This document shows, piece by piece, positions 27,843 to 28,511 of a DNA stretch of 64,000 nucleotides. Positions within the stretch are counted from its first letter, which is position 1; every line of letters starts with the position of its first letter. The notes beneath the pieces are model-generated. The model searched no databases. It was not told where the DNA came from and saw only the letters and a program-made list of their open reading frames with translations. The stretch is taken from NCBI RefSeq assembly GCF_003334335.1, contig NZ_QOWQ01000026.1; one strand, given 5' to 3'. This DNA is from Escherichia coli. GTDB lineage: Bacteria > Pseudomonadota > Gammaproteobacteria > Enterobacterales > Enterobacteriaceae. The translations under genes were made by a program, and so were the position numbers.

Positions 27843-28511
27843 AAACAGAACTGTACCTCGTTTAACCCGAAATCTGTTATCACATACAACGTTAATTATG
27901 GCAAGCCATTTTTAAACATGTCTCGATCAGACGCACAAATCTCGATACGTCTTCCACTTTTTTTGCACACTTATGCAACGGAATACGCGCCGATATATCA
28001 TTGTGCTTAACCTTGCCAGTTCAGGCAGATACTTAAACTGGCGTATTTTCTAACATAGTTCAATAAGTTCAGTTGTTCCAGGCCAGTGGGAGAAGTTATT
28101 ACATAGTGCGTGCAATATCACATTTTTTGCTATGCAATGAATAAAAAGTTATATCACTTTTTCTCATAAAACAGTCAGTTAACGGCTATTAATTACCCTA
28201 AAGAGAAGTCAATCCCCAAAGGGATTGTAAATTTAAAATAAGAAAAATTGATGAATGAGCAAAAAAATCAAGAGAGAAACGTTTCGCTAATAAATAATAC
28301 CACGCTTAATCACAAATCCGATGTAAACATCCTAATAAATTAATGGGGTAAATATCTTTTTCTGATATCCCGTTACGCAAATAAATAATATGATAATTAT
28401 TTGAAGTCAGACCAGAGTTTTAATTTGAAGCAGTTGCACCATGACAGTGCGTATAATCAGGATGAATTGAGTAACCCTTCAACGACGGGGTTACTCAAGA
28501 TTGAGGAAGGA

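Follow-up and report, generated by a model that had tools for sequence, protein, structure and literature searches.

The spacer between yebO and yobF lies in a stretch of 64,000 nucleotides from Escherichia coli (contig NZ_QOWQ01000026.1 of assembly GCF_003334335.1), referred to here as the window. The genes rlmA, cspC, yobF, yebO, and mgrB follow one another in this order, every one of them on the minus strand, as they do at the E. coli K-12 locus. Between yobF (27699-27842, minus strand) and yebO (28512-28799, minus strand), the spacer occupies 669 bp (27843-28511) and is 100% identical to its counterpart in E. coli K-12 MG1655, whose coordinates are obtained by adding 1,879,749 to those of the window. 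Of 5,426 complete E. coli genomes, 5,424 contain the spacer, with identities of 95-100%. RefSeq annotates no feature in it, either in MG1655 or in a further six E. coli genomes. The downstream gene product, CspC, is a global RNA chaperone with effects on RpoS, on succinate use, and, in Salmonella, on PhoP-dependent virulence; the cspC operon is a recurrent target of adaptive mutation in ageing colonies.

The initial annotation had described a long, AT-rich spacer with A/T tracts between yebO and yobF, and our measurements bear this description out. The GC content of the spacer is 0.351, compared with 0.503 for the window, and is 0.286 in the spacer core (28100-28400). Only 0.17% of 669-nt segments of the window are equally AT-rich, all of which overlap the spacer, making it the most AT-rich part of the window at that length. 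It contains 8 A/T runs of at least 5 bases, compared with 3.4 ± 1.7 in shuffled sequences. This low GC content and excess of tracts are the properties expected of AT-rich DNA bound by H-NS, and the binding itself is published: in vitro selection (gSELEX) flagged H-NS on the spacer and also placed several RpoD-holoenzyme peaks within it (PMC3946193).

We consider it very probable that the spacer is a composite, noncoding minus-strand region with three parts, namely, the yebO 3' UTR, a filler, and the yobF-cspC control region. This reading builds on transcript ends, a main start site, conservation, and an absence of coding that come from this analysis or from cited data. The yebO-proximal 49 bp constitute the yebO 3' UTR, with mgrB-yebO and yebO transcripts ending just past an 11-bp hairpin. 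The next ~150 bp would be lineage-specific AT-rich filler, where a hydrolase gene was most likely lost, and the remaining ~450 bp would form the upstream control region of yobF-cspC. In this region, yobF-cspC is transcribed mainly from position 27868 by a sigma-70 promoter, giving a 26-nt leader that published work describes as a target of OxyS and CyaR, and four further upstream blocks would act as regulator-binding DNA sites or distal promoter elements. The region is real and unusually AT-rich, yet ordinary and largely known. Its features, from the yobF side to the yebO side, are as follows.

27843-27940, minus strand: block C, the core yobF-cspC promoter and 26-nt 5' UTR, 85-94% identical in 80 of 80 yebO loci.
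27963-27977, minus strand: block B2, conserved GCATAAnTGTGCA, with column identity of 0.85 across 71 loci; contains the 3' end at 27967.
28047-28081, minus strand: block B, cTGGAc..GAA..TTGAGCTATGGTAAAAAAGTC, with column identity of 0.6-0.87.
28117-28146, minus strand: block A2, near-palindrome GCATAACTATGCAC followed by AAAA.GT, with column identity of 0.70-0.75.
28210-28227, minus strand: terminator-like hairpin CAATCCCTTTGGGGATTG from a consensus scan.
28227-28296, minus strand: block A, the distal element, with family consensus CGAAACGTTTTTAT-TGCCTTTTTATGAGGCA-GTGTCATCAAAATTTCATTATTTTGGTGCA.
28251-28343, plus strand: chance open reading frame (ORF) of 30 codons, with ATG at 28251, a stop codon ending at 28343, and an in-frame TTG at 28248.
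28317-28462, no strand assigned: Escherichia-specific AT-rich filler, in the place of a 331-amino-acid MBL-fold hydrolase gene of other genera.
28463-28511, minus strand: yebO 3' UTR, with an 11-bp hairpin (28498-28467) and the mapped primary 3' end (28463/28464), from Term-seq and folding.

On the yebO side, primary yebO 3' ends were mapped at MG1655 positions 1908212/1908213 in all three Term-seq conditions (PMC7815308). The mapped end lies 4 nt past the yebO hairpin, which folds at -15.5 kcal/mol (z = -3.1). The transcripts reported by SMRT-Cappable-seq include upstream starts at 1908567 (yebO) and 1908792 (mgrB-yebO), as well as a yebO-yobF-cspC read-through transcript (PMC6131387). Several additional Term-seq 3' ends fall inside yebO (window 28619-28753, MG1655 1908368-1908502), and at 1908371, also inside the gene, the Rho termination score from DirectRNA-seq is significant (3.55). 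These internal 3' ends and the Rho score suggest that yebO may undergo premature Rho-dependent termination.

On the yobF side, SMRT-Cappable-seq detected a yobF-cspC transcript extending from 1907617 to 1907153 (PMC6131387), which places the main start site at window position 27868, 26 nt before the yobF ATG. A constitutive RpoD promoter with the sequence TTGCCA-17-GATAAC has been described for yobF-cspC (PMC3946193). We located its -35 hexamer TTGCCA at 27904-27899 and its -10 hexamer GATAAC at 27881-27876, ending 8 nt upstream of the start site, as expected of a sigma-70 promoter. The start site and hexamers confirm the initial proposal that the spacer contains the yobF-cspC promoter. The long yobF-cspC 5' UTR proposed along with it holds only for minor forms, whereas the main leader is 26 nt long; the longer leaders are those of the yebO-yobF-cspC read-through transcript (PMC6131387) and of a putative distal start site discussed below. 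With the main start site at 27868, ~640 of the 669 bp of the spacer lie outside the 5' UTR of the main transcript. Three features of the region escaped the initial annotation: the 3' end of yebO with its hairpin, the strong conservation of the distal blocks, and the gene that other genera carry here. Recognizing the 26-nt main leader, together with the nongene status of the ORF at 28251-28343, averts a wrong annotation of this region.

Additional control of this promoter region has been reported. The small RNAs (sRNAs) OxyS and CyaR repress yobF near its ribosome-binding site, and a published RpoN-holoenzyme gSELEX peak lies at 1,905,652 in old genome coordinates. In our consensus scan, a second, overlapping promoter-like site, GAGACA (27924-27919)-18-TGnCATAAT (27900-27895), was present 20 bp farther upstream than TTGCCA-17-GATAAC in both E. 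coli and Salmonella. Assuming an offset of 1,976 bp between the two genome versions, the RpoN peak would fall at approximately window position 27879, on the core promoter. Inside yobF, a strong Term-seq 3' end was observed in two conditions at window position 27730 (MG1655 1907479), 44 nt upstream of the cspC start, and suggests processing of the transcript, or attenuation, between the two genes.

Much of this part of the spacer overlaps with existing knowledge. The yobFp1/yobFp2 entries of RegulonDB and EcoCyc, a constitutive RpoD promoter in Ishihama's gSELEX set, represent the same locus, and the hexamers, the H-NS flag, multiple RNA-polymerase peaks, the start site, and the sRNA control are already published. 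The published descriptions of the yobF-cspC promoter region covered here leave out the distal conserved blocks, do not list the 3' end at 27967 among its features, and say nothing of whether the hydrolase gene is present. What this analysis adds to knowledge is limited to a map of the deeply conserved distal blocks and the hydrolase gene's history at this position. We also compared the locus with the cspA mRNA thermoregulator (Rfam RF01766), whose model matches 27402-27862 on the minus strand with 135.5 bits, compared with a gathering score of 78, and gives the same match in eight other genera. The match starts at 27862, 6 nt inside the mapped yobF-cspC transcript. The coding sequence of cspC, a cspA homolog, contributes most of the score, and the part of the match that corresponds to the cspA leader has low posterior probability and encodes YobF at this locus. 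Because the match reaches no more than 20 bp into the spacer, the cspA thermoregulator does not explain the features described here.

A scan with a YebO alignment gave 80 loci from more than 20 genera, in which we mapped conserved blocks by blastn searches, profile searches with nhmmer, and alignment of 71 loci in MAFFT. We observed five noncoding blocks with conserved spacing within ~450 bp upstream of yobF in some 20 or more enterobacterial genera, with blocks recovered in 71-78 loci. The sequence between blocks is saturated with changes, and conservation takes the form of contiguous invariant runs without codon phase. Relative to the start site, the distal blocks are positioned at about -100, -180 to -215, -250 to -280, and -360 to -430. 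Block B reads CTGGAACAACTGAACTTATTGAACTATGTTAGAAAATACG in E. coli, and its -10-like TATGGT/TATGTT may represent a promoter element. Unchanged over some 20 or more genera, the blocks offer precise targets for studying the transcriptional control of cspC.

The most distal element, block A, was identified by its nhmmer profile in 77 of the 80 yebO loci and in the MG1655 copy (L001), with E values between 1e-5 and 1e-27. It is always located between yebO (or the hydrolase gene) and yobF, just after yebO or the hydrolase gene, and no second copy was found elsewhere in the window. Its core, CGAAACGTTT, starts 391-477 bp before the yobF ATG and is exact in 70 of the 80 loci. E. coli has kept this core and lost most of the remaining consensus; the Escherichia version is without the TGCC...GGCA dyad, the TGTCAT-N5-TTTCAT direct repeat, and GGTGCA. 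Among six E. coli sequences (n = 6), we noticed a hypervariable spot at 28257-28261, in which two adjacent positions have three or four alleles (GA, AA, GC, TA) and beside which an A/T run varies in length by ±1. In strain SHP24 (L087), a naturally inserted IS1A, flanked by a 9-bp target duplication, lies at the equivalent of 28298-28306, on the upstream edge of block A, and the yobF-cspC locus is known as a hotspot for IS1/IS5 in ageing colonies (PMC13162491). The decayed E. coli copy, the hypervariable spot, and the IS1 insertion together suggest that block A may be losing function in Escherichia.

What might these blocks do? A six-frame comparison of the blocks gave no coding signal. Over 338-408 columns, RNAalifold reached only a weak consensus (-7.5 to -14.5 kcal/mol), no better than that of the reverse strand, and an Rfam search of the block region in nine genera returned no family besides cspA. 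Based on the lack of both coding phase and a conserved RNA fold, we infer that the distal blocks are protein-binding DNA sites or distal promoter elements, and some of them may belong to a minor distal promoter.

Several more specific candidates were considered and rejected. Tiny conserved ORFs in block A on either strand, such as MTLPHKKAIKTFR, have stops or frameshifts in several genera and no Shine-Dalgarno sequence. A structured RNA spanning blocks A to B2 was discarded on the basis of the almost complete lack of an RNAalifold consensus structure on either strand. For a sigma-54 promoter at GGTGCA, the GG-to-GC spacing is, by eye, inconsistent among genera, and the published RpoN peak is on the core promoter. 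An sRNA ending just past block A, either derived from a 3' UTR or stand-alone, would call for a conserved terminator; terminator-like sites occur there in 29 of 66 loci, compared with 19-23 of 66 in shuffles, at positions that are not conserved. The K-12 hairpin at 28210-28227 was rejected as a terminator because its stem positions 28215 and 28223 are polymorphic in E. coli without compensation. No Term-seq 3' end is listed at this hairpin or near 28200, and it is probably fortuitous, a peculiarity of K-12-like strains.

In one of three conditions, Term-seq detected an orphan 3' end on the minus strand at 1907716 (PMC7815308), which corresponds to window position 27967, inside block B2. This end is found in the second Term-seq sheet, which we took to be LB at an optical density of 2.0 from the order of conditions in the paper, and its score there is 264,852, compared with 46,490 for the yebO end. 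Supplementary file 3 of the same study retains such 3' ends only when dRNA-seq placed a start site upstream of them, either ahead of the preceding stop codon or no more than 200 bp away (PMC7815308). Retention of the 27967 end in this file therefore suggests that a minor distal start site lies somewhere in 27988-28511.

An alternative to our reading of the blocks is that a distal promoter in the conserved region drives minus-strand synthesis of either a distinct small RNA or a long leader subject to attenuation, ending at 27967, with the blocks serving as its promoter and RNA elements. Two candidate promoters could be proposed: one in block B, with the -10 element TATGTT, a start near 28043, and an RNA of ~77 nt, and one in block A, with a -35 and -10 pair TTGCTC-16-TATTTT, a start near 28227, and an RNA of ~260 nt. 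Such an RNA would account for an orphan end that outscores the yebO end in the same sheet, complies with the table's rule on upstream start sites, and falls within a conserved block, and it would be consistent with the several RpoD-holoenzyme peaks across the spacer (PMC3946193). However, the end appears in only one of the three conditions, the local fold at 27967 is no better than in shuffles (z = -0.02) and includes no intrinsic terminator, and neither conserved secondary structure nor an Rfam match accompanies the putative RNA. Moreover, the sequence between blocks is unconserved, in contrast to the usual sRNA seed; both candidate promoters match weakly and are absent from the consensus-scan output; and the 27967 end could derive from processed yebO read-through RNA. 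We therefore regard this alternative as doubtful. Even so, the orphan end and the upstream start required by the rule suggest that some distal RNA is made, such that a purely DNA-level reading of the blocks is incomplete.

Returning to the blocks as regulator-binding DNA, we compared the block A core with known operators. The E. coli 20-mer at 28290-28271, TTAGCGAAACGTTTCTCTCT, agrees at 16 of 20 positions with the perfect palindrome TCAGCGAAACGTTTCGCTGA, which is located 16-35 nt upstream of rbsD in MG1655 and which we take to be the RbsR operator of rbsD. Citrobacter copies match this palindrome at up to 18 of 20 positions, and most genera match at 13-15. Across the block A family, the left half-site alone is conserved, and the right half is TTTTTAT in most genera. 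Block A shares with the RbsR operator of rbsDACBK (LacI/GalR family) the sequence AGCGAAACGTTTC, a central CG step, palindromic half-sites, and 16-18/20 identity, but it differs in having a degenerate right half-site and in lying far from any mapped start; its likeness to the RbsR operator is a resemblance, not membership. At rbsD itself, we noticed a second half-match, AAAACGTTTCGAGG, ~75 bp farther upstream of the palindrome (L088 946-959, MG1655).

Taken further, this resemblance would make the block A core a predicted operator bound by an RbsR/PurR-type repressor (LacI/GalR family), through which ribose or purine status would act on yobF-cspC or on a distal promoter. The extent of the match in E. 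coli and Citrobacter is consistent with this possibility, as is the exact preservation of CGAAACGTTT in most loci while its flanks are saturated with changes. Nonetheless, only one half-site is conserved, the site is ~410 bp away from the mapped start site, and among the reports covered, we found none that names yobF as a target of RbsR, PurR, or Cra. We thus judge a true operator of this type to be rather unlikely.

A second resemblance involves the direct repeat of block A. The consensus TGTCAT-CAAAA-TTTCAT has the same 11-bp periodic layout as the tandem sites (hexamer-N5-hexamer) of the Pho box and OmpR family, and it agrees at ~15 of 21 positions with the Pho-box consensus, CTGTCATAAAACTGTCATA. 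Unlike a Pho box, the repeat abuts a -10-like TATTTT instead of replacing the -35 element, and in E. coli it has decayed to ATTCAT-N5-TTTCTT. Both the RbsR-type and the Pho-box-type likenesses are leads, not memberships. Combining them, we tentatively propose, as something possible though hardly probable, that blocks A, A2, B, and B2 (27963-28296) could make up a distal control module for CspC that is deeply conserved and has so far gone unannotated. It would combine an operator of the RbsR/PurR type with a direct repeat of the response-regulator type and might drive a distal promoter giving a short RNA that ends at 27967 in stationary phase. If true, this module would tie cspC expression to a metabolic signal to which it is not known to be linked.

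Between the control region and the yebO 3' UTR lies the filler of the composite spacer (28317-28462), which has a GC content of 0.322. It shows similarity only to other Escherichia lineages (75-79%), except for short extensions of block A into 28317-28359 at a few Citrobacter loci. Over the 80 loci, the yebO-yobF spacer falls into two length classes, about 590-750 bp and about 1,515-1,585 bp. The long class contains an intact 331-amino-acid ORF immediately past yebO on the same strand in 32 of the 80 loci L002-L081 (for example, L009 2808-3803 and L059 2802-3797), with 62-87% identity. The product is an MBL-fold, hydrolase-like protein with a weak match to a metal-dependent hydrolase model. 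The gene is present in Lelliottia, Kosakonia, Cedecea, Buttiauxella, Leclercia, Phytobacter, and some Enterobacter and absent from Escherichia, Salmonella, Citrobacter, and Klebsiella. Loci of the Enterobacter cloacae/hormaechei group retain the first few bases and the last ~55 bp of the gene on either side of a ~930-bp internal deletion, and these retained ends prove that the hydrolase was lost in that lineage. Because many Enterobacteriaceae carry the hydrolase at the position of the filler, E. coli most likely lost the gene long ago. No remnant was detected in the E. coli spacer (best tblastn E value, 0.43). The presence or absence of the hydrolase at this exact spot shows the origin of the spacer.

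The same observations bear on whether the AT-rich spacer could be a decayed pseudogene or a horizontally acquired remnant, silenced by H-NS and devoid of function. Its low GC content, the H-NS gSELEX flag (PMC3946193), the absence of the hydrolase gene, and the toleration of an IS1 insertion in one strain would all fit such a remnant. We rejected the more specific version, in which the E. coli spacer is a pseudogene or remnant of the hydrolase, given that no residual similarity to the gene was detectable at the tblastn E value above. In addition, the spacer is retained at 95-100% identity in nearly every complete E. coli genome, and its five blocks clearly evolve under purifying selection across genera. 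We consider the remnant reading improbable; conservation largely refutes it for 27843-28316, and it would apply at most to 28317-28462.

The initial annotation also listed the 30-codon plus-strand ORF at 28251-28343 while doubting that it was real, and this doubt was justified. We compared the ORF in five E. coli strains picked across the identity range. It is intact in K-12 and in two of the five strains (L082 and L083) and broken in the other three, by a premature stop (TAG at codon 3) in L085 and by frameshifts (one +1 and one -1) in an A-run at codons 4-6 in L084 and L086. Codon 3 itself occurs as GAG, AAG, GCG, and TAG. Outside E. coli, the ORF closes after a few codons or lacks its ATG in E. 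albertii and in two further divergent Escherichia lineages, and in Salmonella, Citrobacter, and other genera, its frame is shifted relative to the invariant DNA core. No Shine-Dalgarno sequence is present upstream of 28251, and the product matches no NCBIfam family. A tblastx search of the region gave nothing beyond DNA-level similarity, with hits to Citrobacter only, in several frames and on both strands. PGAP leaves the ORF unannotated in seven of seven genomes checked, and the sORF supplement of Stringer et al. 2021 has no entry with its coordinates or neighboring gene names. Among ~15 billion predicted proteins, an identical peptide was called a single time, in a JGI assembly. Because the ORF overlaps a conserved DNA block, part of it appears constrained, but the DNA-level conservation of block A accounts for this overlap. 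Its intactness in K-12 and two further strains and the single call are thus set against disruption both within the species and between genera, and we consider a genuine 30-amino-acid protein extremely improbable; as a conserved gene, the ORF is already refuted.

We noticed several discrepancies in the records of these genes. YobF is assigned to DUF2527 in MG1655 and to DUF2627 in PGAP records. The gene adjacent to yobF is called "cspE" by PGAP (WP_001062678.1) in all six non-K-12 genomes (L082-L087, locus positions 35-244), albeit it is cspC by position and sequence. Finally, enterobacterial YebO loci (P0015, P0100, and L008) appear in records labeled Staphylococcus succinus, Vagococcus sp. 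WN89Y, and Chryseobacterium sp. 18061. The S. succinus record is a 424-nt contig that is 96% identical to E. coli YebO, and these misplaced records are probably the result of contamination or mislabeled assemblies.
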